Part shown: positions 28,536-48,451 of the stretch, piece by piece | Layout of the letters: each line of letters opens with the position of its first letter | How positions within the stretch are numbered: the stretch's first letter is position 1 | Virus record (IMG/VR): IMGVR_UViG_648276647_000006 | Coordinates: 1-56,868 of that record | DNA length: 56,868 nucleotides | DNA from: a virus | Lineage: Duplodnaviria; Heunggongvirae; Uroviricota; Caudoviricetes | Strand: one strand, 5' to 3' | The notes under the pieces: model-generated | What the model was told of the DNA's origin: nothing | The model's input: only the letters and a program-made list of their open reading frames with translations | Database searches by the model: none | Program-made: the position numbers and the translations under genes

Positions 28536-28931
28536 ATGTTTAATGGCCTGACAGATGCCAAGGTAAACGCCTTACTGAACGACGCAAAACAAAAAGCTGC
28601 TAACCCTGGAACGAATGAAAATGAACGTGCTATGGCTGTTGCAATTTGGGAGTTAGCAGAAGAAGTAAAGCGAAACCGCTTACTATACACTCGGGTTTAC
28701 CAGCAATTTGATGGTGCGAGCTGGATAGATATCGAAGAGGCTGAATATGCAACATGCAAAAAAGAAAAAAAGATTGTTCGGATTTTGCATAAAGCAGCAA
28801 CCCCAATCACTGTAGAAATCCCCGATCACAGATATTTCGAGAACGATGATCTACCAGGGGATGTGATTCGAATTATTGATGAGATACTTCATGAACAAGG
28901 CTTAACTGTTAAAATTACGCATAATAAATGA
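28536..28931 (+). CDS. hypothetical protein, translationally coupled to cre
   Basis: ORF track 131 aa; GAGGTGA RBS; its stop overlaps the cre ATG. Confidence 0.6.
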   Translation: MFNGLTDAKVNALLNDAKQKAANPGTNENERAMAVAIWELAEEVKRNRLLYTRVYQQFDGASWIDIEEAEYATCKKEKKIVRILHKAATPITVEIPDHRYFENDDLPGDVIRIIDEILHEQGLTVKITHNK

Positions 28932-29959
28932 CTAATTCGTTAACCGTTCACCAAAATTTGCCTGCATTGCCGGTCGATGCAACGAGTGATGAGGTTCGCA
29001 AGAACCTGATGGACATGTTCAGGGATCGCCAGGCGTTTTCTGAGCATACCTGGAAAATGCTTCTGTCCGTTTGCCGGTCGTGGGCGGCATGGTGCAAGTT
29101 GAATAACCGGAAATGGTTTCCCGCAGAACCTGAAGATGTTCGCGATTACCTTCTATATCTTCAGGCGCGTGGTCTGGCAGTAAAAACTATCCAGCAACAT
29201 TTGGGCCAGCTAAACATGCTTCATCGTCGGTCCGGGCTGCCACGACCAAGTGACAGCAATGCTGTTTCACTGGTCATGCGACGGATCCGAAAAGAAAACG
29301 TTGATGCCGGTGAGCGTGCAAAACAGGCGCTGGCGTTCGAACGCACTGATTTCGACCAGGTTCGTTCACTCATGGAAAATAGCGATCGCTGCCAGGATAT
29401 ACGTAATCTGGCATTTCTGGGGATTGCTTATAACACCCTGTTACGTATAGCCGAAATTTCCAGGATCAGGGTTAAAGATATCTCACGTACTGACGGTGGG
29501 AGGATGTTAATCCATATTGGCAGAACGAAAACGCTGGTTAGCACCGCTGGTGTAGAGAAGGCACTTAGCCTGGGGGTAACTAAACTGGTTGAGCGATGGA
29601 TTTCTGTCTCTGGTGTAGCTGATGATCCGAATAACTACCTGTTTTGCCGCGTCAGAAAAAATGGTGTTGCCGCGCCATCATCCACCAGCCAGCTATCAAC
29701 TCGCGCCCTGGAAGGGATTTTTGAAGCAACTCACCGATTGATTTACGGGGCAAAAGATGACTCTGGTCAGCGATACCTGGCCTGGTCTGGACATAGTGCC
29801 CGTGTCGGTGCCGCGCGAGATATGGCCCGCGCCGGAGTTTCAATACCGGAGATCATGCAAGCTGGTGGCTGGACCAACGTAAATATTGTCATGAACTACA
29901 TTCGTAACCTGGATAGTGAAACGGGGGCAATGGTGCGCCTGCTGGAAGATGGCGGTTAG
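28928..29959 (+). CDS. cre: Cre tyrosine recombinase
   Basis: ORF track 343 aa; near-identical to P1 Cre as I recall it (LTVHQNLPALPVDATSDEVRKNLMDMFRDRQAF...), with catalytic R, H-x-x-R and Y regions present. Confidence 0.97.
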   Translation: MTNSLTVHQNLPALPVDATSDEVRKNLMDMFRDRQAFSEHTWKMLLSVCRSWAAWCKLNNRKWFPAEPEDVRDYLLYLQARGLAVKTIQQHLGQLNMLHRRSGLPRPSDSNAVSLVMRRIRKENVDAGERAKQALAFERTDFDQVRSLMENSDRCQDIRNLAFLGIAYNTLLRIAEISRIRVKDISRTDGGRMLIHIGRTKTLVSTAGVEKALSLGVTKLVERWISVSGVADDPNNYLFCRVRKNGVAAPSSTSQLSTRALEGIFEATHRLIYGAKDDSGQRYLAWSGHSARVGAARDMARAGVSIPEIMQAGGWTNVNIVMNYIRNLDSETGAMVRLLEDGG

Positions 29960-31128: not shown

Positions 31129-31317
31129 TAAATATATTATTTTTAATGATAAATGATTGACAACTGACAAGTTACTTCAGTCAGAATCATCACACGCCCG
31201 GTACGGATGGATCCCTTTTCAAATATTCCATGGACGGCACAGTCTGAGTACCGGGCGCTACCTTCAGTTGTATTGCTAAGCCGCCGCTGGTGGCTTTTCT
31301 TTTTTGTAGGGGGCGCT

Positions 31318-31959
31318 ATGGATAAGAAAATATGCGTTGTTTCGATGAGCGTCGGCAAACCGGCGTCAATGACTGCTGCATGGATCAATAACGAGCTGAT
31401 AATGGCTGAGCGGACCAGCTACCCTGAACGCCGCCGCGATATGGAACTCCAGCTGCTGCGCGAATTGCGAGAAAAAGAGGAAAAGGGTTTTATCGTGCTG
31501 GTGGAAGAGGAAAACAGCTTTATTACTGGACGAGTTGGCCAGCGTGTAAGGTTGCGCGATCCCTTCATGAACGGCAGGCCGGTACTAATTGAGGCAATGC
31601 AGATTTACAAGGAGCTGGAACGCCAGAAAGCGATCAAGTTACCGCGCAAAGAATCCGGCAAATACATCCTCCACCAAAGCATCTTCGATTCCGAACACGA
31701 CAAAAAAGGCGATGAATTTTTCAACATCAACTGGAGCGAAATAACGACAGAGCATGTTCTGACGTTACTATGTTGCTTTGCGACGGAATACAACAACGTT
31801 GCCAGCGCAGACTACATCAGGGCAATGGCTGGAGAAGTTGAGGCACGCCAGGAACCATCGTTACTAAGCCCTCTGATTAACATAATTCGCGGAACCCAAA
31901 CGCTGGCACAAAAACAGGTGCCTAAGGGAGTATTAACAGGAAAAGGAAATTATCTATAA
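31318..31959 (+). CDS. hypothetical protein (mat position in P1)
   Basis: Start taken at ATG 31318 (AGGGGG RBS) within track ORF 31207..31959. Confidence 0.55.
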   Translation: MDKKICVVSMSVGKPASMTAAWINNELIMAERTSYPERRRDMELQLLRELREKEEKGFIVLVEEENSFITGRVGQRVRLRDPFMNGRPVLIEAMQIYKELERQKAIKLPRKESGKYILHQSIFDSEHDKKGDEFFNINWSEITTEHVLTLLCCFATEYNNVASADYIRAMAGEVEARQEPSLLSPLINIIRGTQTLAQKQVPKGVLTGKGNYL

Positions 31960-32015: not shown

Positions 32016-33320
32016 ATGAGCGAGTATATAGAAATTGCCTATGCAGCAGCTACACATAGGCTGTGCTTTCTTACAGGCACTGGATTTTCAAAGGCTGTTT
32101 CTGATGATAAAGCCCCAAGTTGGCAATCTTTATTGGAGCAACTGTGCGGTTTATTGAAGGATGGTGACTCACTCAAAGAGGAATTATTTCCTGATGGAAA
32201 AGCAAAAGACCTTAGCCTTGAAGAGGCAGCTCAGGTTATTGCACTAAAATTTATACTTTCGGGGAAGAATATTTACCAGGAGATTGAGAAAATCATAGCC
32301 TCAATCGAACTTGATCCATCAATTGAATATATTCAAGACTTTTTCAAAGAAAACACATTTAAAGTAATTACGACAAATTATGACAAGTTAGCAGAAAAAC
32401 TGGCTGGAGAGAATCGAACGTGTACAATCACCCCCGGTCTGCCAATTCCAAAATATAATTGTGAGGTTAAAGTCTACCATGTTCACGGCTCTATAGACTC
32501 CCCATCAGATATGGTTGTTACTAGCGAGGATTATTTCAGATTTATAAATGGTAACTCTTACTTTTCAAATAAACTAAGCACAGTTCTACATGAAAACACT
32601 ATTGTTATTCTTGGCTATTCTCTAAGTGACGCGAACCTCAAGGCGATTATAAATGAATATAAGGTATTTTCACGGGACAACGTAATGTCCTCCAATATTT
32701 TCCTTATTTCCCGAGGGAAACTATTGCAACCTATTAAAGATTACTATTTTTCCTGCTTTGGGATTAGGGTTATAGATAAAACAGAGGTGTCTGATTTCTT
32801 TAGAAAACTTAACAAGAAAATTCCAGAAGCAAAAAAAATAAAAGACAAATTGAGGCACTCAATCAAATCGGTAATAAAAAACGGAAGAGAGTATAAAATA
32901 GAGTTCTTGAAGTTAGAGGATTCTTTTTATCATATCATTTCCTCCATTTCATCATCTGGATATAGCTGGAATGATGAAAAGGTATTAAATGTTTTTTGTG
33001 ATATAATAGATAAAAAAATAGATCTTACTAAAGAGTCTGGCGCATGGGAGCAGTATGAACACCTGGCAAAATGGCTTATTTATTTCGGTAGTTTATTTGA
33101 AGTAAAAGGAACCAACTTTGAGAAAAAATACATACATGCGGTTGAACACTCAATGACTTATATGAATAAACCTTACGAAACAGGCTACTCATGGCGAGCA
33201 TATCTAGCCTGGAAAACAAAATGGCCTTCACTGACAGCATCTAACCGCTCTCTTATTAAGAGTAAGATGGAAGAAATCCCGCTACAACAGATTCACGATA
33301 TTATATCTAAGTTTATATAG
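32016..33320 (+). CDS. SIR2-like (SIR2_2 family) protein, candidate NAD-depleting defence effector
   Basis: ORF track 434 aa; GGAG RBS; motifs GTGFS (res 21-25), TTNYD (119-123), HVHGS (155-159), GYSLSD (200-205); C-terminal ~180 aa with no motif I recognise; gene is conspicuously AT-rich relative to its flanks. Confidence 0.8.
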   Translation: MSEYIEIAYAAATHRLCFLTGTGFSKAVSDDKAPSWQSLLEQLCGLLKDGDSLKEELFPDGKAKDLSLEEAAQVIALKFILSGKNIYQEIEKIIASIELDPSIEYIQDFFKENTFKVITTNYDKLAEKLAGENRTCTITPGLPIPKYNCEVKVYHVHGSIDSPSDMVVTSEDYFRFINGNSYFSNKLSTVLHENTIVILGYSLSDANLKAIINEYKVFSRDNVMSSNIFLISRGKLLQPIKDYYFSCFGIRVIDKTEVSDFFRKLNKKIPEAKKIKDKLRHSIKSVIKNGREYKIEFLKLEDSFYHIISSISSSGYSWNDEKVLNVFCDIIDKKIDLTKESGAWEQYEHLAKWLIYFGSLFEVKGTNFEKKYIHAVEHSMTYMNKPYETGYSWRAYLAWKTKWPSLTASNRSLIKSKMEEIPLQQIHDIISKFI

Positions 33321-34080: not shown

Positions 34081-37000
34081 TTATGCGTATTGTTGGATGA
34101 CGGCCATAACGTCCGCCACGTTGTGTTTTGTCTCGATAATCCACCAGTTACCCGGGAAATCGCTGTTCTTCGCCTTCGCTGGCAGCCAGCGAGCGCCGAA
34201 TTTCGCCTTGATTGCGTCTTTCGCACGGAAAAGAATGCCTTTCATGCCGGACGCCTCCTGAAGCCCAAATACCTCGCCAGCGGCGAATTTTGGTGCGTAC
34301 ATCATCTTCAGGTCTGCGGTGGATACGCGATAATTCAGACCAAGAGACTGAGCTATGCTGGTGGCATCACCCTGTATTGATGATAACTCTTCTTGTTTCT
34401 CGTTTCTGGCGGCAATTTCTTCCTCCGTGATGTTGCCAAGGGCCAGGTTTATCCGATCAGCGTCTGCCTGTTTCTCTTCATCGGTGCGCCCGGCAAGAAC
34501 CGTGTTAATTCTCTGCAATATCTCCACATGATTCTTGCGCATGCTGAGCAATTCCGGCGTAACCTCGTTAAGATCCACCAGCCCTAGGATGGCAAGGTCG
34601 GAAAACATTGATACCAGGTTGTAGGTCATGCGATAGCTGAGTTGACCATAGGCTGATGGCAACTTCACCGCATCCATTTGATAGGCATCCATAAATTTAG
34701 AGCCGTCGTTTACGACATCCGCAATTGCAGGTGTGATTTTCCCTGTGGTGGCGGCCTCCCTGATTGCTGTTACCCACGATTGAGTCAGCGCGGCGACTGC
34801 ATGATTCAGATTGGTTTTCCGTTCTGCTGCAATGCGCGCGCTTGCTGCGTCCATTGCCTGCTTGACCTCGTCTTTATTGCTGTAAATGCCAATGGTGCCA
34901 AACTGTGCTGTGGTGATCTCATAATCTGACGCCCGGAACTCATGGGTACCGAAAATGGCATTGGTGACCTCAAGTTCAGAATCCCCGTTACGGGTAGCCC
35001 CCTGGCTTGTTTTCTCCGGCATTCTGGCGATCGCATCCGCTATTTTCTCCTGAATTGCTTCAGGGGATAGCGTATCTCCGTATGACGCGATTACATCGCC
35101 ATAATTGGAGCCAAACAGTTCAGTCAGGAATACTTCTGCCAAACGGATCTGGCGGTTATTCCCTTCCGACATCATACCAAGCACCCATTTAGCAATTGAC
35201 GACTTCAGCGCGCCGTCACGGCGATCCGGATAAACCGCATGCTTCAGCGGGTCCGTATAGGTACCAACAAAATCAATGCTGTAGCCTGACTCTGTAGTCT
35301 GAACGCCGTATGAGTCAGTGATTTTGATCATGCCGCGCTGCTGGAAACGGTAGAAATCGTCACAGGAAATGATGTCGTTAATCCCGGCGATGGAGACGCC
35401 ACCACTGATTTTCTGCATAACAGCATCTTCATTGGGAGTTACATCAACCTGTTTATCCAGCGTCTTCACATCCCAGTTACCCGATTTTGTGCCTTTGAAG
35501 GTAAAGATAATCTCCACGTCTGCGCGCTGGCTGTCGAAGTCCAGAGACTTAATGCGGACGATATCACCGGCAAAATCATAGTATTGGCCTACACGCCATG
35601 AGCGATCGCCGATAACAAGGAACTCACTCGCATGGTTAACCAGGTCAGGATCAACATCCAGAATGCCTTTATTTATTGCATCCTCCACCAGCGGGCGCAG
35701 GCGTTTGATATCCGTCGCGGCCTTCTGGGTACGGTTCAATAATTTCTCATAGCGGGAGATGGCTTGAGAGATATTAGCCTTCTGTTGAATAGCATTTTTT
35801 AACGAAGCGCGATATCGAGCTAACAACATACGGTCAGCGTTATGGACACTCCCCCAACGAGCCTTCCAGTCTGCGTTATCAGCTGCTTTGGCCATTACCG
35901 CCTGTTTGAATTTAGCTACCTCGGCGGTGGTCTTTTCAAGTTCCGCTTTGTTTCGCTCTAATTCAGCGGTAAGTACCTCCACATCCTCGCCAGCTGCGTG
36001 CTGCGCCTTGATGTAGTTCTGAAGGTCGATAGTAGCCTGTTCTTTCTGGCGAGCGCGTTGCGCGGCTTTCGCCTTATCCATTTGAACCTGCATCATTGCC
36101 AGACGTTCGCCATCATCCTTAGCGGTATACATCTGCATTTCGATCATATCGTTGGCGTCTGCGTTCTCCATTTCTGACTTATCTGAACGGAGGATATCGG
36201 AGATCCAGCCTGCTTTACGCTTCAGCGTCTTCAGTCGGTATTCATCGAAAGAACCCTTGCCGCAGTAGTAATGAACGCGAACGCTTGCACGGTTGGAGCC
36301 AACTCGGGCACCGCGACCGTTACGCTGTGCGATACTGGCTGGTGTCCATGGCAACGTCAGGTGGTGGATATCCGTCGTTCCTCGATGCAGGTTGATACCC
36401 ACCTCTGCCTTTTTGTTGCAGATGATGATCGGGGTCCGGCCCTCCTGGAAGTCGGCAGCAATCTTTTCCAGACCGCCCAACGACATTTCATTTTGCTGCG
36501 CGATATAGGCGTCATACAGAGCCATTTGCTCGTTGTATTTCGCTAGCTGTGCATCTGTTGGTTCATCCGGTAACTCTTTCGGCGGTTTAACCGCTTTCAG
36601 TTTCTTACCGGTTTTACCTGCCTCGGCAACCGTCTGAGCATTCAGGATCCCCACCTTTGAAGGTTCAAGGTTAAGAGCATTGCAGATAATGCGCTTGAGC
36701 TTCTGGTGCTGCGTTTTTTCATCGGTGAAGATGATTTGCTTACCTTCCGGGAAAAACTCCTTCAGCGTGGCGATCAGCTTCGCGTATTTGGGCGTAACGG
36801 GGTGAGTTACGGTCTGTTCGTCAATGCCAAACCTGGCCAGGCGCTTATTCACTTCCTGCTCGAACGCTTCCGGAACCTGCAACTGAATAAACTCGCCCTT
36901 ATCTATCAGGGAGTATTGCGATTGCTGCGTGATTGCATCATCACTGTCGTCGTCTTCGCTGGTGGCTTGTTTAGGCAAACTGTCCGCCAGCTGCTGCACC

Positions 37001-40000
37001 GCATCGGCATACTCCGGCAGGAAACGATAGGTGATCCGGCGATAGTACAGGTCCATGTCAGTACATACGCGGTCCATATCCCTGATTATTGAGAAGATCG
37101 GACGGGCTTTCTCGTGCTCAATCACGCCGTCTTCATTGACCGAGGTCGTTACGCCATTGTTGGCTTTGGCCGCCGCTTCCGCCTGCTGACGCAATTCTTC
37201 ATACGCCGCCAGTTGTTCTTCAGTAAGTGGTGCATCCTGCTGGTGCTCGTCCAGCTCCGGGATCTCCACGGTATCCTTAACGTCTTCCGCCGTTTTAAGC
37301 GTTGTCCACCGATGGAATATACCGCGCAGCGCATCAAGGTTTTCAAAGCCCACCAGCGCCATTTTTTCTTCAACTTCACCGCTGATTTTCTGTACCGTTT
37401 CCAGCCTGGTCTTACCGAAGAATTTAACGAAGTCATCAGGACCGTAGATCCCCATCTTCTGCCAGTATTCCTTCGGCAGCACATGAGAAAGCATGTTGTA
37501 TGCATCGATCGGGGTGTTAACGACTGGCGTTGCAGTCAGGAGAACCGGTCCGCGCCCGCCATTCTTTTTCATCAGGTATGCGTTTTTGATTGCCATATCT
37601 CGCGCCGATTGCGCCACCGCGCTGGTGGGCAGATAGGCCAGCTGTGACGCTTCGCGACCATTTTTATAGCTATTGCGGTAGTTGTGGCCTTCGTCAACGA
37701 TCACGCTATCGAAACCCATATCCTCAAAGTACGGATACTTCTCTGATTTTTCGGTGCCGGTATCTGAATACTCCGACAAGATACGGCGACGCGCGGCCTC
37801 TTTGCGGTGGGAGTCGGAGTCCATTGCGCTGGCTACACGCCCGGCGGCAACAAAGTCCAAAAGCATATCTTGAGCATGCTCATCTACGGTTTCATCGCGT
37901 AGAGGAAGGCGGAAGTATTGTTCTTTGGTGAGCACTACAGCACGGTAATTTGAGTGCGGGATAGCGTTTATCCGCGCCGTGATAGTGGCTTCATCAGCCA
38001 GCTTAAGGGCATCGCGCATAACGGGAGTGCCATCTGCACCAACGACAGCTTTACCGTTCTCATCGAGCACCGGCACCTGGCGAATCTGATCGCCATCCAT
38101 CAGCACATCAAGACCGACAAACAGGTAGTTACTGAATGCCTCTTCACTCAGGAACTCTTTTGCCTCGTAATACCAGTTTTCCAGCACTGATTTAGGTACT
38201 ACATACAAAGTTCTGGTTGATCGGCCATTCTCATAGTTGAACGCCTCAAGCGCCAGCGCAGTCGTGGTTTTACCCAGCCCGGTACCGAAGCCCAGGATGC
38301 CGCGCCCATCTTCGGACAGTCGGCGCACCTCGCTATTCTGGTAATCAAATGGCTGTCGCTTACCGCTTAATCCCTTCAACCCAAGCGGATCGCCAGAGTG
38401 TTCATACGGGATATTGCTATTGAACACATCGTTGTATTTGGCAACCAGCTCATCGTAGCGATCGTGCGTCTTGATCCACTTATTGAACTGGTCCTCAAGC
38501 AGTGCCATCTGCTCGCGGTAGCCGTTCGCCGTCGCGCTATCTTTGCCACCGATACGCGCACCATTGAGATACTTTTCCAGCTGTGCCGGGAACCCGGTCG
38601 CGTTTTCACCTGATTTACGGTCCCACTCGTAGCGGATCTCGCCTGTTTCTTTATCCTTGCGCTGGACGACACCGTATCGGTGTCCGACGAACAGACCATC
38701 ACCACCGTGATAGGTGTCAGAAACCATTTCGTCGCCTTCCAGCTGCACTGACTGCACATAGCGCAGATCCGGATAGCCGTTTTCCTGCAAAAATTCCAGA
38801 ATGACGGAACGGTCGAACCAACGGCTATTGAGCTTAAACCGGATATTCTCTGCTGGCGTCTTGATGCGCTTCTCTTCGATCGCTGCCAGCTGATTAAGGA
38901 CGTTGTTCTTTACTGGACCGTCGGGGAGCGTGGCGAGGAATTCCTGTTTTGGAGCCACTATCTCGTTAATGTCGCCGCTGGTGGCGCGGGCGAACGGAAC
39001 AATCCCGCCATACGGTGAAACCGCAATACCAGGGGTGCTGGCCAATAAATTAAGCAACTCTTCATCACTGGCTGGCAGTTCGCCGGTAAACGCAAGGCGG
39101 AAATCATCGAGCTGGATTGGATCGCGGGTAAGATCGCTATAGAGATAACGCAGGGTGTCCTGATAGCTGGTGGAGTCATAACTGGCGCTGGAATCATGCG
39201 TAACCAGCTTTCCTGTCAGCTCGTCAGAAATAGTGCCATCCAGCTTAATCGCACCACGGAAAGCAAACCAGGCGCGCGCACCGCTCCCCGACAATTTCGC
39301 TATAGGACCGCGACCTGGATTACCAAAGCGGTCAATCTCTGCCTGCAAACGGGATACCAGAGAAAGGCGCTGCTGTTCGATTTGTTCAGCACTATGCCCG
39401 GCGGCCTTCATATCCTGATATTCAATTAACATCCGGCCAATCATCGCCCCGCGATACAAGCGTTCACGGTATTTTTCAGGCTGGCTGTTAATCCAGTCCA
39501 CCAGCTGCACCATATCGTCGCTGATTGATGTGGTGTACTTATCGCGGACATTTGCCATCTGGGTAAATGTCATACCGAGACGGCCTTCTGTTGTAGTCAG
39601 GTTACGCTGAAGAGCCTCCCAGCTATTCGCGCCATAACTGGCAGCATCAATCTTAAGCTCCTTCCCGGCATCAGCTTCAATCCAGCGACCACCAGCATAT
39701 TTTTGCCATACGCCATTAATCAGGCGCATTTCCCCTTCATCAACAACGTCTGCGGTCGGTGACGGTTCGGCCATATTGAGCAAAGACCAGTCGATACGAC
39801 TTTCGAAACGATGAATCAGCTTCGCTTTAAGAGCCTGGTTATCAATCTGCCCGTCGGCACGAACCTCAATACGCCCCTGGAAGCCCTTTTCCTGGGTGCC
39901 ATGAACAAACCGGCGGCCATCCTTTTCAAACCACTTGCCAGAAATAAACGTTGGCCAAAGCACATTTGCCGATTCAAGAGTGCCTTCATCCACCAGGGGG

Positions 40001-40848
40001 ATTTTCTCAGCCATTTCTGCCGGATGTTTGCGCATCAGCACCACATCAACGACCGTACTGGTCCCGTTTGCATCAAAAGTACCGGTAGGCAAGCGGTGGG
40101 CGCCAAGAAATTCAGCTTTACGGGATAGGCGCAGGCGCAACCGCTTCATGTTTGAACCTGAAACAATGGACGGCGGCACAATCACACACATGAATCCGCC
40201 TGGCTTTATCTTGTCCAGCATGCGGAGCATGAAGTAAGACCCCATGTCCGTTTCTTCTGCGTAAGGCTTATCGATGTTGCGTGTGTTATCACGCCCGCCG
40301 AACGGAACGTTACCCACAACATGGTCGAATGAATCGTTAGGCGTGCTTACAGCCAGCTGTTCGAACGGGGAAATCTGTACGCTGTCTTCCGGATGTAACA
40401 GCTGGTTTATACGACCGGAAACACTGCTGATCTCAGTCGCAGTCATCACTGTACCAACCGGTTTTGTCTCATTAAAAACACCGGTTCCCGCGGAAGGTTC
40501 CAGGGTGTTACCTACGTCCGCGCCGTAGAGCTTCATGATCTCCCAGACACCTTCAGCGATCGGCTTTGGTGTGTAATATTCGGAGACAGAACCACCAATG
40601 CCGCCCTCCCCGGTGTACCCGGCCAGGATCTGGCGCTGTTCATCTGTCAGTGTCGCGCCGTCCACCAGCGAATTAAGCAAATCTATCGCCTTCTGATTCG
40701 CCTCCCGGCGCAGTCGGTCATAGCTTTTGCCTTCCACCTTTTCCACGCCGTATCTAATCGGCGCTCGGTGAGATGTTATTGCCCTAATGTATTTCAATAT
40801 TTCGCTGACACTTGAACAGCGAAACACCCCCATAGATAGCTTGTTCAT
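34081..40848 (-). CDS. darB: DarB-like antirestriction protein (N6-adenine methyltransferase plus DExH helicase)
   Basis: ORF track 2255 aa, the length I recall for P1 DarB; MTase motifs LEPSAGTGVF and NVPFGG; helicase motifs LGFGTGLGKTTTAL and DEGHNYRN. Confidence 0.9.
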   Translation of the reverse strand: MNKLSMGVFRCSSVSEILKYIRAITSHRAPIRYGVEKVEGKSYDRLRREANQKAIDLLNSLVDGATLTDEQRQILAGYTGEGGIGGSVSEYYTPKPIAEGVWEIMKLYGADVGNTLEPSAGTGVFNETKPVGTVMTATEISSVSGRINQLLHPEDSVQISPFEQLAVSTPNDSFDHVVGNVPFGGRDNTRNIDKPYAEETDMGSYFMLRMLDKIKPGGFMCVIVPPSIVSGSNMKRLRLRLSRKAEFLGAHRLPTGTFDANGTSTVVDVVLMRKHPAEMAEKIPLVDEGTLESANVLWPTFISGKWFEKDGRRFVHGTQEKGFQGRIEVRADGQIDNQALKAKLIHRFESRIDWSLLNMAEPSPTADVVDEGEMRLINGVWQKYAGGRWIEADAGKELKIDAASYGANSWEALQRNLTTTEGRLGMTFTQMANVRDKYTTSISDDMVQLVDWINSQPEKYRERLYRGAMIGRMLIEYQDMKAAGHSAEQIEQQRLSLVSRLQAEIDRFGNPGRGPIAKLSGSGARAWFAFRGAIKLDGTISDELTGKLVTHDSSASYDSTSYQDTLRYLYSDLTRDPIQLDDFRLAFTGELPASDEELLNLLASTPGIAVSPYGGIVPFARATSGDINEIVAPKQEFLATLPDGPVKNNVLNQLAAIEEKRIKTPAENIRFKLNSRWFDRSVILEFLQENGYPDLRYVQSVQLEGDEMVSDTYHGGDGLFVGHRYGVVQRKDKETGEIRYEWDRKSGENATGFPAQLEKYLNGARIGGKDSATANGYREQMALLEDQFNKWIKTHDRYDELVAKYNDVFNSNIPYEHSGDPLGLKGLSGKRQPFDYQNSEVRRLSEDGRGILGFGTGLGKTTTALALEAFNYENGRSTRTLYVVPKSVLENWYYEAKEFLSEEAFSNYLFVGLDVLMDGDQIRQVPVLDENGKAVVGADGTPVMRDALKLADEATITARINAIPHSNYRAVVLTKEQYFRLPLRDETVDEHAQDMLLDFVAAGRVASAMDSDSHRKEAARRRILSEYSDTGTEKSEKYPYFEDMGFDSVIVDEGHNYRNSYKNGREASQLAYLPTSAVAQSARDMAIKNAYLMKKNGGRGPVLLTATPVVNTPIDAYNMLSHVLPKEYWQKMGIYGPDDFVKFFGKTRLETVQKISGEVEEKMALVGFENLDALRGIFHRWTTLKTAEDVKDTVEIPELDEHQQDAPLTEEQLAAYEELRQQAEAAAKANNGVTTSVNEDGVIEHEKARPIFSIIRDMDRVCTDMDLYYRRITYRFLPEYADAVQQLADSLPKQATSEDDDSDDAITQQSQYSLIDKGEFIQLQVPEAFEQEVNKRLARFGIDEQTVTHPVTPKYAKLIATLKEFFPEGKQIIFTDEKTQHQKLKRIICNALNLEPSKVGILNAQTVAEAGKTGKKLKAVKPPKELPDEPTDAQLAKYNEQMALYDAYIAQQNEMSLGGLEKIAADFQEGRTPIIICNKKAEVGINLHRGTTDIHHLTLPWTPASIAQRNGRGARVGSNRASVRVHYYCGKGSFDEYRLKTLKRKAGWISDILRSDKSEMENADANDMIEMQMYTAKDDGERLAMMQVQMDKAKAAQRARQKEQATIDLQNYIKAQHAAGEDVEVLTAELERNKAELEKTTAEVAKFKQAVMAKAADNADWKARWGSVHNADRMLLARYRASLKNAIQQKANISQAISRYEKLLNRTQKAATDIKRLRPLVEDAINKGILDVDPDLVNHASEFLVIGDRSWRVGQYYDFAGDIVRIKSLDFDSQRADVEIIFTFKGTKSGNWDVKTLDKQVDVTPNEDAVMQKISGGVSIAGINDIISCDDFYRFQQRGMIKITDSYGVQTTESGYSIDFVGTYTDPLKHAVYPDRRDGALKSSIAKWVLGMMSEGNNRQIRLAEVFLTELFGSNYGDVIASYGDTLSPEAIQEKIADAIARMPEKTSQGATRNGDSELEVTNAIFGTHEFRASDYEITTAQFGTIGIYSNKDEVKQAMDAASARIAAERKTNLNHAVAALTQSWVTAIREAATTGKITPAIADVVNDGSKFMDAYQMDAVKLPSAYGQLSYRMTYNLVSMFSDLAILGLVDLNEVTPELLSMRKNHVEILQRINTVLAGRTDEEKQADADRINLALGNITEEEIAARNEKQEELSSIQGDATSIAQSLGLNYRVSTADLKMMYAPKFAAGEVFGLQEASGMKGILFRAKDAIKAKFGARWLPAKAKNSDFPGNWWIIETKHNVADVMAVIQQYA

Positions 40849-45883: not shown

Positions 45884-45900
45884 TGCAAATCACTTGTTAG
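45884..45900 (-). promoter_or_regulatory. candidate late promoter element
   Basis: Minus-strand TAACAAGTGATTTGC about 100 nt upstream of lyz. Confidence 0.3.
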
Positions 45901-45922
45901 CTACGTTTCAAAGATATACATT

Positions 45923-45939
45923 ATTGCTCTAATTAATTT
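45923..45939 (+). promoter_or_regulatory. C1 operator upstream of ssb
   Basis: ATTGCTCTAATTAATTT. Confidence 0.7.
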
Positions 45940-45958
45940 ATTTTATTAGGTAAGATAA

Positions 45959-46447
45959 GTGGCACAACGCGGTGTAAACAAAGTCATCCTGATTGGTACC
46001 CTGGGGCAAGACCCGGAGATCAGGTATATACCAAATGGCGGCGCGGTCGGAAGACTCAGCATCGCAACGAATGAATCATGGCGCGACAAGCAAACGGGCC
46101 AACAGAAAGAGCAAACAGAATGGCATAAAGTCGTTTTGTTCGGAAAACTTGCTGAAATTGCGAGTGAGTATTTACGAAAAGGTTCTCAGGTATACATCGA
46201 AGGGAAACTTAAAACCCGTAAGTGGACAGATGACGCCGGTGTAGAACGTTACACGACGGAAATTATCGTCAGCCAGGGCGGCACCATGCAAATGATCGGC
46301 GCTCGCCGTGACGATTCACAGTCCTCAAATGGCTGGGAGCAATCAAACCAACCTCAAAACCACCAGCAATACAGTGGTGGCGGTAAACCTCAGAGCAACG
46401 CCAATAACGAACCTCCAATGGACTTTGACGACGATATTCCGTTCTGA
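45959..46447 (+). CDS. ssb: single-stranded DNA-binding protein
   Basis: ORF track 162 aa; OB-fold N-terminus [19 protein letters not shown], Gly/Gln-rich linker, acidic tail DFDDDIPF. Confidence 0.95.
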
Positions 46448-46643
46448 ATGTGTAAAAAACGACTGAAAGAAAAGCGGTGGTCCAGACGCCGACAAAAGCA
46501 CGAACTCGCTAAAAAACGCCAAAGCTGGCAATGGCACGCGCTTTTCACGAAAAGAACACCCCGAGGCATTGCTTTCGCTGGTGGGAAAACATTCCTCCCC
46601 ACCTGAAGGCGCAATACATCAAATTTTAAGCAGAGAAAAGACT

Positions 46644-47324
46644 ATGAATAAAATGGCAACGAAAGAGCTTTTTAAGTTCCTTCCCAAATACAAAGCTCAC
46701 AAAATCGTTAGTGCATCGAAAATCAAAGATATCGAGATTATCTCATTGATTGATAATACCCCTGCTTGTGGCTATATCACATTAATGGACCCCCAAGGCG
46801 TAACGGTTCGTGTTGATGCAGCGTTTTTGCAAAAACACCGACCAGATACTGGCGGCTATCTGCTCGGTTATGAGGACGGTTATCTGTCCTATTCACCAGA
46901 AAAAACATTTGAAGAAGGCTTTAGTCGGACTAACGACTTCTTCGAAAATGAGGTATCGCTTAGCATTGAAGGTCACAATGGGGTGACATTCATTACAGCC
47001 AGGGACGTAACTATTTCTGCTGGCGGTATCGCTACGCTACAAGAAGAAATCGACCTTGAAGCAGCCGACTTTTCTGACGCGCTGATGTGGCTGAAGGATG
47101 GCAAGAAAGTTGCTCGACGCGGGTGGAACGGCGAAAACCAATTCTGCTGGCTGGTTCCTGAAGGACAGAACCCGGCACGAATGGAAGCCATTAAGGGATA
47201 TTTCCCCGGCGACCTCGTTCCGTATGGTGCTTATTTCGCCTTAAAAAATGCACAAGGTGTAGTTGTTCCGTGGGTTCCTTCTGTAGGCGACTTACTGGCA
47301 TGTGACTGGTTTGTAGTGGAGTGA
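46644..47324 (+). CDS. DUF2829 (Tad2-like fold) domain protein
   Basis: C-terminal ALMWLKDGKKVARRGWNG...VPWVPSVGDLLACDWFVV matches the DUF2829 hallmark; start taken at an internal Met of track ORF 46569..47324. Confidence 0.65.
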   Translation: MNKMATKELFKFLPKYKAHKIVSASKIKDIEIISLIDNTPACGYITLMDPQGVTVRVDAAFLQKHRPDTGGYLLGYEDGYLSYSPEKTFEEGFSRTNDFFENEVSLSIEGHNGVTFITARDVTISAGGIATLQEEIDLEAADFSDALMWLKDGKKVARRGWNGENQFCWLVPEGQNPARMEAIKGYFPGDLVPYGAYFALKNAQGVVVPWVPSVGDLLACDWFVVE

Positions 47325-47330
47325 TTTAAC

Positions 47331-48113
47331 GTGGAAAATACTAAAGCAATTCAATACCGCCTGCGTAATGGCCAGAGTGTCGAAGTGACCATCAATAATG
47401 ATGGAGTACCTGGCGAAAAGGTTTCTATCTCTGCTCTGGCTATCGAAAAAACCATCATGTGCCACCTTGGCTTTACTGAAGAAGTGAGCAAAAAGCATGG
47501 TGTAGCAATCTGGAGCGCAATGGATACTGGTATGCGCAAATTCATTACTGCTCGTACCCCAGGGATGACCATGATGGACCTCATGCAGATTGCGCCGCTG
47601 TTTGAATGTGAGCCTTTAGATGTATTCAGCAATCCAGCTATCTGCCAGCAGTTATATGGTGAGATGAAACTCGCGGTTACCCCCATTGTGCTGCATGAAG
47701 GATCGCTTGCTGGCGTGTGGAAAGTGGAGCGTATTTCAAGCTACATGCCTTTCCATGTCAACGGCGTAATCACTGGTGAAAATCAACCTGTTTCCGTTAT
47801 AAAGTCAGACCTCAAGCGCGCAATTCTTGAAGCAAGTTGTCGAATTGTCGGCCTGGGCAAACAGTCTTATGTTTCCTTCCCGGCTGGCCCTGAAGGCCCG
47901 GCAGAAATTCTGATTATGGATGCCGATCTGCTATGGCAAATACAGTTTCTGATTGGCAAAAGCATCATCCGCGCTGAAGAACTCGATCAGTACATTACCT
48001 GCACGATGACGGATGAAGTCAAAAGTGTGGCTATAGCCAATGCCCGGAACCTATGTCGTGCTGCATTAACAGAACTGCAAGAAAACACCACGGAAGAAGT
48101 GGAAAGCGATTAA
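47331..48113 (+). CDS. hypothetical protein
   Basis: ORF track 260 aa; GTG start with GGAGTGA RBS. Confidence 0.6.
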   Translation: MENTKAIQYRLRNGQSVEVTINNDGVPGEKVSISALAIEKTIMCHLGFTEEVSKKHGVAIWSAMDTGMRKFITARTPGMTMMDLMQIAPLFECEPLDVFSNPAICQQLYGEMKLAVTPIVLHEGSLAGVWKVERISSYMPFHVNGVITGENQPVSVIKSDLKRAILEASCRIVGLGKQSYVSFPAGPEGPAEILIMDADLLWQIQFLIGKSIIRAEELDQYITCTMTDEVKSVAIANARNLCRAALTELQENTTEEVESD

Positions 48114-48145
48114 AAAAAATCCCGCCAATTGGCGGGATTTCTTCA
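48113..48145. terminator. bidirectional terminator
   Basis: A8-TCCCGCC-AATT-GGCGGGA-TTTCTT. Confidence 0.7.
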
Positions 48146-48451
48146 ATATACGATCTGGTCTACATGATCACCAAAATCATCGTCGTCGTCCTCATCGCCA
48201 CCATCTACTGCTGGCCAATCAACAAACCAGCCAGCGTAAAGATGCAGCGTTCGGAGAACATCACTTGCGGGAACATCAAGGGTGTTAACGAATCCCATAT
48301 AGCTATTGGGATTTGCCCCAGCTATGGCTTCAGCGATCATGTCCTCGGTAATGTCACCGGAGATAATGCTTAAACGCCCGGAAACTTCTTCATTATCATC
48401 AAATTCGATAATGGCATCTCCACCTAATGGCGCTGCGATTTTAATCTGCAT
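48143..48451 (-). CDS. hypothetical protein (hdf position in the P1 dar operon)
   Basis: ORF track 102 aa; last gene of a long minus-strand operon. Confidence 0.5.
   Translation of the reverse strand: MQIKIAAPLGGDAIIEFDDNEEVSGRLSIISGDITEDMIAEAIAGANPNSYMGFVNTLDVPASDVLRTLHLYAGWFVDWPAVDGGDEDDDDDFGDHVDQIVY

Follow-up and report, generated by a model that had tools for sequence, protein, structure and literature searches.

A putative counter-defence protein of a P1-like phage-plasmid joins a Dec-like OB-fold domain to a Tad2 domain

The window analysed here is the whole 56,868-nucleotide stretch of virus record IMGVR_UViG_648276647_000006, and its source is a P1-like phage-plasmid (Punavirus). 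We describe a two-domain gene at 46644..47324 on the + strand, which starts with ATG and has 226 codons and a stop. It lies between ssb and a homologue of isaA and encodes a Dec-like OB domain, a linker and a Tad2 domain. The region 45900-48200 is 95.9% identical in nucleotide sequence to Salmonella phage SJ46 and about 95% identical to P1 where it can be aligned. The N-terminal domain (46644..46937, + strand, residues 1–98 with a folded core at about residues 10–97) has a Dec-like OB-fold and belongs to a large unnamed phage family. It is followed on the same strand by a variable, β-rich linker (46938..47045, residues 99–134), which ends in the conserved junction GGI.T.QEEIDLEAADF, and by the Tad2/DUF2829 domain (47046..47321, residues 135–226). 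The original prediction had placed a DUF2829 protein with an uncharacterised N-terminal part downstream of ssb. The translation of the open reading frame (ORF) contains exactly the motifs that it quoted (GKKVARRGWNG ... PWVPSVGDLLACDWFVVE), and the gene begins 197 nucleotides beyond ssb (45959-46447). PHROG 872, a family of unknown function, covers the full length of the 226-residue protein (E=2e-58); NCBIfam and PADLOC scans give no match for this protein or for the isaA product.

NCBI-annotated homologues begin at the methionine equivalent to our start (MN.M..KEL). A longer, TTG-started ORF (46569-) was rejected because of a 1-nucleotide deletion and an in-frame stop upstream, relative to P1 and SJ46. 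The frameshift and stop also reject, for the window, the 281-residue form annotated in SJ46 and the long form of P1 IsaA; these annotated long ORFs begin about 30 nucleotides past ssb. The stretch between ssb and the 226-codon gene (46448..46643, + strand, 196 nucleotides) is thus a non-coding leader. It is common to P1, where it stands directly before isaA, and it carries the ribosome-binding region.

The C-terminal domain matches the Pfam family PF11195 (Tad2-like) with E=2.1e-22 and 79.8 bits, against a cut-off of 25, and the match spans residues 142–225 and profile positions 2–73 of 73. The significant PDB sequence matches of the C-terminal half are all Tad2 structures: ModTad2 (9eib and 8v3e, E~1e-19), HgmTad2/AcrIIA7 (8kbi, 9kzr), SPO1 Tad2 and SptTad2. 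The domain is 44% identical to ModTad2 over 88 residues with a single 1-residue gap, and 38% identical to SPO1 Tad2; the alignments with SPO1 Tad2 and HgmTad2 contain 4–17 gapped residues. A single-chain AlphaFold2 model, built on 47 homologues, gives the same answer. Its top 24 Foldseek PDB matches are all Tad2, with template modelling scores (target-normalised) of 0.60–0.86, and the best match is 9eib (E=4e-8, score 0.76). The predicted local distance difference test score (pLDDT) is about 85 across the domain except for loop 180–192, and helix 143–151 is followed by β strands. By sequence and predicted structure, residues 135–226 are a bona fide Tad2/DUF2829 domain, as originally predicted.

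The core ligand-pocket residues of Tad2 are conserved in this domain. SPO1 Tad2 contacts glycocyclic ADP-ribose (gcADPR; ADP-ribose is ADPR below) through W25, N26, W73 and D79, together with S76, T78, I63, T65, D67 and H71 (10.1101/2023.05.01.538930). The five residues W25, N26, W73, S76 and D79 correspond to W161, N162, W210, S213 and D216 in the window protein and are identical, so the pocket on which the original prediction depended is conserved. The W161-N162 codons (47124..47129, + strand) belong to the GWNG motif and are equivalent to the ligand contacts W25/N26 in SPO1 Tad2 and W21/N22 in HgmTad2 (10.1101/2023.05.01.538930; PMC10680739). The W210, S213 and D216 codons (47271..47291, + strand) belong to the WVPSVGD motif. 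Residues W161, W210, P212, S213 and D216 are invariant across the 47 homologues. In HgmTad2 the pocket for ADPR signals consists of W21/N22 and S90/T92/D93, while a separate pocket for cyclic dinucleotides is made by R31, P32, D34, L36, S47, F70 and N85 in a long insertion (PMC10680739). The position of SPO1 T78 and HgmTad2 T92 is G215 in the window protein. In our alignment, the cyclic-dinucleotide pocket of the HgmTad2 type is not conserved: R31 is replaced by V, D34 by G and L36 by N, and the insertion is 17 residues shorter. ModTad2 likewise has V at the position of R31, and its β2–β3 insertion has the same length as that of the window domain. ModTad2 binds His-ADPR (10.1101/2024.01.03.573942) and also 2′cADPR (10.64898/2025.12.03.692087), and its second pocket takes cUMP or cCMP (PMC12393519). 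The replacement of R31, D34 and L36 of HgmTad2 by V, G and N makes a cyclic dinucleotide a less likely ligand than an ADPR-derived signal from TIR proteins, of the type bound by ModTad2. Our confidence in any specific ligand is much lower than that in the sponge function. At least three alternative alleles of the β2–β3 region, equivalent to residues 158–208 of the window protein, occur among P1-like elements. One of these alleles has RREWKGEK in place of RRGWNGEN (GWNG to EWKG), and the Asn that contacts the ligand in SPO1 Tad2 and HgmTad2 is lost. This EWKG allele possibly marks a different ligand specificity.

The N-terminal part of about 120 residues is indeed uncharacterised in the databases, with no Pfam, NCBIfam or PADLOC match and only PHROG families of unknown function. 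Residues 1–101 modelled alone give a pLDDT of 87 and a predicted template modelling score of 0.79, and the model is a small β-barrel with two short helices. A PDB search with the single sequence of the N-terminal 136 residues gave no match, and a profile was required. A profile of 19 N-terminal domains (N-domains) finds the capsid-decoration protein Dec of phage L as its sole PDB match (E=2.9e-4). In hhalign the match to Dec has a probability of 93% and E=3e-7 across 84 columns, which take in the whole OB domain, and in Foldseek Dec ranks immediately after the Tad2 structures (E=1.3e-3). By eye, the two share the motifs LP.YK, V.A..IK and P..GGYL...G.L.Y....FE..Y. The N-domain is a separate OB-fold module and a distant homologue of the Dec capsid-decoration domain. 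Assignment of the N-domain to Acb4 (PF13876) was rejected, as hhalign shows no similarity. In Dec the OB domain binds capsids, and the C-terminal 55 residues form a trimeric β-helix (PMC6449081). The linker of the window protein is β-rich with pLDDT below 50, and residues 98–138 are modelled at low confidence. It has no significant sequence similarity to the Dec C-terminus and is not conserved among homologues, in which unrelated β-rich, helical or long segments take its place.

The N-domain family is very large. A profile search returned 1,110 clusters, mostly stand-alone proteins of 82–105 residues without a Pfam domain, and an exhaustive phmmer search with the N-domain of the window protein alone returned 2,817 cluster representatives at E≤1e-3. 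In an alignment of 87 sequences with 27% mean column identity, K20, V22, A24, G71, Y72 and F89 are invariant. Seventeen further positions are at least 90% conserved in the same sequences: P14, H19, I27, P67, G70, V74, Y76, D78, G79, Y80, S82, S84, P85, A88, E90, G92 and Y93. Residues 28–60, a β-hairpin in the model, are hypervariable. The conserved H19, K20, K64 and H65, together with Tyr, Ser and Asp residues, are compatible with the positively charged interface pockets of an oligomeric sponge; they prove nothing.

The partners and neighbors of the N-domain point to immune signalling. Among 90 multi-domain representatives, the Pfam partners are Tad2 (five), Acb4/PF13876 (three), Sequestin/PF21825 (three), the Acb2/Tad1 hairpin (one) and DUF1508 (one). 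We also inspected 80 loci from IMG/VR, each with flanks of up to 10 kb, using hidden Markov models (HMMs) built here. These models detected six sponge domains, all at distances of 0–496 bp from the N-domain and none farther out; three share an ORF with it and three lie in the gene next to it. The HMM for the Acb2 hairpin was too insensitive (no matches, compared with two by Pfam). When 22 fused ORFs and 72 directly adjacent genes were scanned with Pfam, RyR appeared three times, Acb4 twice, the Acb2/Tad1 hairpin twice, Tad2 and Sequestin once each, and nine other families once each; a further check confirmed individual fusions. RyR-domain phage proteins degrade or sequester 2′cADPR and 3′cADPR (PMC13232231). 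Individual stand-alone N-domain genes lie two genes from Tad2 and four from Acb4 (locus L004), directly before Acb4 (L013) and directly before Sequestin (L015). The family shares the traits by which sponge families have been recognized (PMC12265669): its members are short (about 100 residues or less), phage-specific, mostly stand-alone and recurrently fused to sponges. PF21825 was identified as the sponge Sequestin through its fusion to Tad2 and Acb4, and sponge–sponge fusions are active against both targets (PMC12265669; 10.64898/2026.06.04.730250). By the logic that led to Sequestin, fusion or adjacency to Tad2, Acb4, Sequestin, the Acb2/Tad1 hairpin and RyR makes the N-domain an anti-signalling candidate. 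The family may thus be a new and very large phage anti-immune-signalling family, with at least 2,800 clusters at 50% identity, mostly 85–100 residues long and without a Pfam entry; we hold this only tentatively. Its members could be a new sponge, or could bind signal-producing sensors through the hypervariable β-hairpin of residues 28–60. If this is true, Dec would be an exapted relative of the N-domain family, and the window protein would combine two inhibitors in a single chain. Further fusions of the N-domain, to DUF4406 (E=2.5e-28) and to RyR domains, occur in IMG/VR loci L067 9434-10282, L070 and L076. DUF4406 might be another candidate; no anti-defence role is assigned to it in the literature searched.

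The gene appears to be expressed early. The C1 repressor operator Ossb/Op21 (45923..45939, + strand, ATTGCTCTAATTAATTT) lies in the ssb promoter region and has the same sequence as the monovalent C1 operator annotated in P1. The 17-bp Ossb and the ssb promoters match P1 base for base, and the promoter region is collinear with P2ssb/P1ssb of P1. The first gene is ssb (45959..46447, + strand), an ORF of 162 residues with about 96% nucleotide identity to ssb of P1 and SJ46. The last is the isaA homologue (47331..48113, + strand), which encodes 260 residues of unknown function (PHROG 2326, no known domain); its product equals P1 IsaA minus the annotated leader of that protein. There is no terminator-like site on the + strand from ssb to isaA. 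As the C1 operator and promoters are kept and no such site precedes isaA, we infer from the P1 annotation that ssb, the 226-codon gene and isaA form one C1-repressed early operon. The possibility that the 196-nucleotide leader is a regulatory RNA was rejected, with a folding z-score of −0.39 and no Rfam match. Terminator-like matches to Rfam leaders (Trp, Leu, Thr, rnk; E 0.004–0.5, below threshold) cluster only after isaA, at about 48110-48240 on both strands. For the segment 48109-48239, where isaA and hxr converge, the simplest explanation is a bidirectional intrinsic terminator.

Taken together, the protein is quite probably an early counter-defence protein of a P1-like phage-plasmid, with a Tad2 sponge and perhaps a second anti-signalling module. 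The gene would be transcribed with ssb and isaA and, because transcription would start from the C1-repressed ssb promoter, the protein would be made immediately on infection or induction. From what is known of the family, the Tad2 domain would assemble as a homotetramer. By sequestering ADPR-derived signals from TIR (Thoeris-type) sensors of the host, this tetramer is predicted to keep the effector inactive. Such a sponge function of the C-terminal domain for TIR-derived ADPR signals is probable in our judgement. The most likely ligands would be His-ADPR or 2′cADPR, possibly 3′cADPR, with cUMP or cCMP in the second pocket. The N-domain, carried on a flexible and replaceable linker, may act as a second anti-signalling unit that is sponge-like or binds sensors; this is the most plausible of its roles, more so than a structural one, but we hold it only tentatively. 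All the computational checks proposed with the original prediction support its signal-sponge idea; a cyclic dinucleotide is the less likely ligand.

Several observations weigh against this reading. The secondary SPO1 contacts are altered in the window protein (I63L, T65N, D67Q, H71V and T78G). Specificity in the Tad2 family is plastic and includes 3′cADPR, His-ADPR, N7-cADPR, cyclic dinucleotides and cUMP (PMC12393519), so a ligand cannot be read from 44% identity. The N-terminal extension of about 134 residues sits on helix α1, which is the tetramer core in SPO1 Tad2, and could affect assembly; an N-terminal fusion to Tad2 is functional elsewhere, in Acb4-Tad2 of phage Pm86 (PMC12265669). No Pfam match is found in the partner region of 77 of the 90 multi-domain N-domain representatives, and no known sponge is found near four of the seven stand-alone N-domain genes inspected individually. 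Only one homologue of the N-domain has a known function, which is capsid decoration. Several stand-alone homologues adjoin genes for terminase, portal or capsid proteins, a setting that dec also has in phage L, and the homologues in Pseudomonas phages Dolphis and Jeremy are annotated as 'capsid decoration protein'.

These last points raise the question of whether the protein is virion-associated, with a Dec-like OB domain and a β-helical stalk on the capsid that display or carry the Tad2 fold for decoration, for adhesion or as a sponge tethered to assembling capsids. The 36 residues after the N-domain are β-rich with G/N/D turns like the Dec spike, and their low model confidence is what is expected of an intertwined trimer. 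One homologue (P0022) is fused to a tail-fibre repeat. Against this, the linker is exchanged for helical or unrelated segments in close homologues, and a stalk built as a trimer is at odds with a Tad2 tetramer. By its context, the gene is in the early ssb operon under C1-operator control, not in a late operon, and it is dispensable, being missing from P1. The top conserved residues of the family (H19, K20, E77-D78, S82, S84 and P85) are absent from Dec. The Dolphis 'decoration' gene sits within an array of small accessory genes, and in Klebsiella phage SopranoGao gp55, an N-domain–Tad2 gene, comes after cro/cI-like regulators. The homologue gp05 of GP4 is not among the proteins seen in the 3.7 Å capsid map (PMC9698820). 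We therefore regard a virion role as quite improbable. Another alternative, in which only the Tad2 domain is functional and the N-domain is a neutral or structural passenger (for solubility, oligomerization or stability) of the kind common in phage accessory regions, is unlikely but deserves more weight. Stand-alone Tad2 proteins of about 90 residues suffice for activity, the D6 Tad2 gene (146 residues) has no N-domain, and free swapping of N-domain alleles leaves the Tad2 part about 99% identical; the many multi-domain members with partners other than known sponges also suit a passenger. It is hard to reconcile with the N-domain family itself. The motif is very strongly conserved (6 invariant positions and 17 at 90% or more) at 27% mean identity among 87 sequences, and the domain is mostly an independent gene for 85–100 residues, which argues that it is not a passive tag. 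Its annotated partners and neighbors are dominated by the five anti-signalling families.

The protein could instead be an anti-CRISPR like AcrIIA7, or use the DUF2829 fold in some other way than as a sponge. AcrIIA7 itself belongs to DUF2829 and appears in the PDB matches (8kbi, 9kzr), and the DefenseFinder label for the family is 'Tad2 AcrIIA7'. To our knowledge, the Escherichia and Salmonella hosts of P1-like elements have no type II-A CRISPR-Cas, which counts against this use, and the ADPR pocket is intact in the window protein. Moreover, the anti-Cas9 activity of AcrIIA7/HgmTad2 is not reproducible, and the protein is instead a sponge for gcADPR and cyclic dinucleotides (PMC10680739; 10.1101/2025.06.06.658234). 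An anti-CRISPR role is therefore very unlikely indeed.

A counter-defence protein with a Tad2 sponge has close relatives among described systems. ModTad2 (or MoTad2, from a Myroides odoratus prophage; 8V3E apo and 9EIB with His-ADPR) is the best sequence and structure match for residues 135–226. It has the same-length insertion after β2, which creates the second pocket, and identical GWNG and W..S..D motifs. ModTad2 is a single domain of 89 residues from a Bacteroidota prophage, whereas the window protein has an N-terminal extension of about 134 residues and is encoded by an enterobacterial phage-plasmid. The two differ at 56% of residues, some of them in the loop of the cUMP pocket. SPO1 Tad2 (Gp34.65; 8SME, 8SMF and 8SMG), the founding member, has the same fold and five identical core contacts. 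It differs in having a short β2–β3 loop, stacking of F44 that occludes the second pocket, and no N-terminal domain. Acb4-Tad2 (Pasteurella phage Pm86), Tad2-Sequestin and Acb4-Sequestin (phage Ab09 gp59) likewise combine a sponge, a linker and a second small phage-specific domain (PMC12265669), and the Ab09 hotspot lies beside the phage ssb, as in the window (PMC12265669; 10.64898/2026.06.04.730250). The partner domain of the window protein, in contrast, belongs to no Pfam family and is neither Acb4 nor Sequestin. Phage L Dec (6E3C) shares the OB-fold domain, but it is a late virion protein with a trimeric β-helix spike of 55 residues, whereas the window protein has a Tad2 domain and an early operon. 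In the literature searched, there is no description of the two-domain architecture, the Dec homology or the link to five families; Tad3–Tad8 lay outside the comparison.

The gene is a dispensable one-gene cassette. P1 lacks it, and DNA alignment shows a precise one-gene indel at about 46647-47335; in P1 the leader and ATG read straight into isaA. SJ46 and vB_EcoM-Ro157c2YLVW carry the gene, and the nearest annotated orthologue is J46_0048 of SJ46. It also occurs in 229 plasmids of PLSDB, almost all of them non-mobilisable, about 95 kb long and from Escherichia, Salmonella or Shigella; the best match among them has only 91.4% nucleotide identity. In phage D6 (locus L016 2525-3748), the DUF2829 gene, which lacks an N-domain, follows cre and a dUTPase gene and has an isaA homologue directly downstream. 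In a DefenseFinder survey of 2,304 phage-plasmid contigs, 56% of the P1-like and 93% of the D6-like elements are reported to have 'Tad2 AcrIIA7' (10.1101/2025.09.12.675607). Tad2 in the P1/D6 group is therefore already known at the annotation level, and membership of the Tad2 family is in itself ordinary and already catalogued for these elements. The survey covers the same gene family and elements, but it records presence only, with no description of two domains, Dec-like features or alleles. The DUF2829 gene stands directly before an isaA homologue both here and in D6, at different genome positions, which suggests that the two genes form a mobile module. IsaA may itself have an accessory or counter-defence role. 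Some P1/D6-like elements have the N-domain without Tad2: in a 92-kb D6/P1-like contig (locus L012 3501-3800, P0124), it occurs alone as a gene for 99 residues, with an allele close to that of the window. This gene adjoins a HicB-like antitoxin gene and the anti-restriction genes ddrB and darA.

The locus evolves by cassette exchange, through presence or absence of the whole gene, swaps of N-domain alleles and alleles of the β2–β3 loop. Among 5.8 billion clusters, no protein has more than 85% full-length identity to the window allele. Its N-domain is 100% identical to that of P0003, and its Tad2 part is 98.9% identical to many other proteins. Between the window and SJ46, the synonymous divergence (dS) is about 0.8 in codons 1–60 and 0.035 in codons 99–226, and the ratio of nonsynonymous to synonymous divergence (dN/dS) is 0.2–0.5. 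From these values, the N-domain allele was replaced by recombination; positive selection for divergence of the N-domain was considered and rejected on the same values. Nearly identical Tad2 domains are joined to other partners in several homologues. P0054 (241 residues) has an N-terminal dUTPase, P0022 (306 residues) has the tail-fibre repeat followed by the N-domain, and P0063, P0075 and P0110 (191–363 residues) have Sequestin C-terminal to Tad2. The fusion breakpoint in these homologues is the conserved junction at the end of the linker, and its EIDLEAADF segment behaves like a recombination hotspot. The locus thus illustrates how diversification proceeds by one-gene cassettes, swaps of N-domain alleles and ligand-loop alleles at a conserved linker.

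Pathogenic E. coli, Shigella and Salmonella commonly harbour P1-like phage-plasmids, which disseminate resistance and toxin genes. Knowledge of the host immune systems that these elements disarm helps to explain their host range and stability. The architecture described here points to a large unnamed family systematically tied to five families of immune-signal inhibitors, and this family could add a new inhibitor family and possibly new ligands or sensors. It could also reveal that a capsid decoration protein and counter-defence are unexpectedly linked in evolution.

The original prediction also held that the phage itself carries a SIR2 effector. A SIR2 domain is present (32016-33320, Pfam SIR2_2, E=1.6e-23), but an identity with Thoeris does not follow, as only the SIR2 core matches ThsA models. 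A link between this SIR2 gene of the phage and the Tad2 gene finds no support. The SIR2_2 protein (32016-33320, + strand) has 434 residues, and in PADLOC it is matched best by PDC-S25, LmuA and the SIR2 part of ThsA, all in the SIR2 core only. The ORF upstream (31207-31959, + strand) encodes 250 residues without a Pfam or PADLOC match and belongs to PHROG 1837, of unknown function. The pair lies between a cre-like recombinase gene (28928-29959) and darB (34081-40848), where P1 has res/mod, and is likely a phage-borne defence cassette whose type is unassigned.

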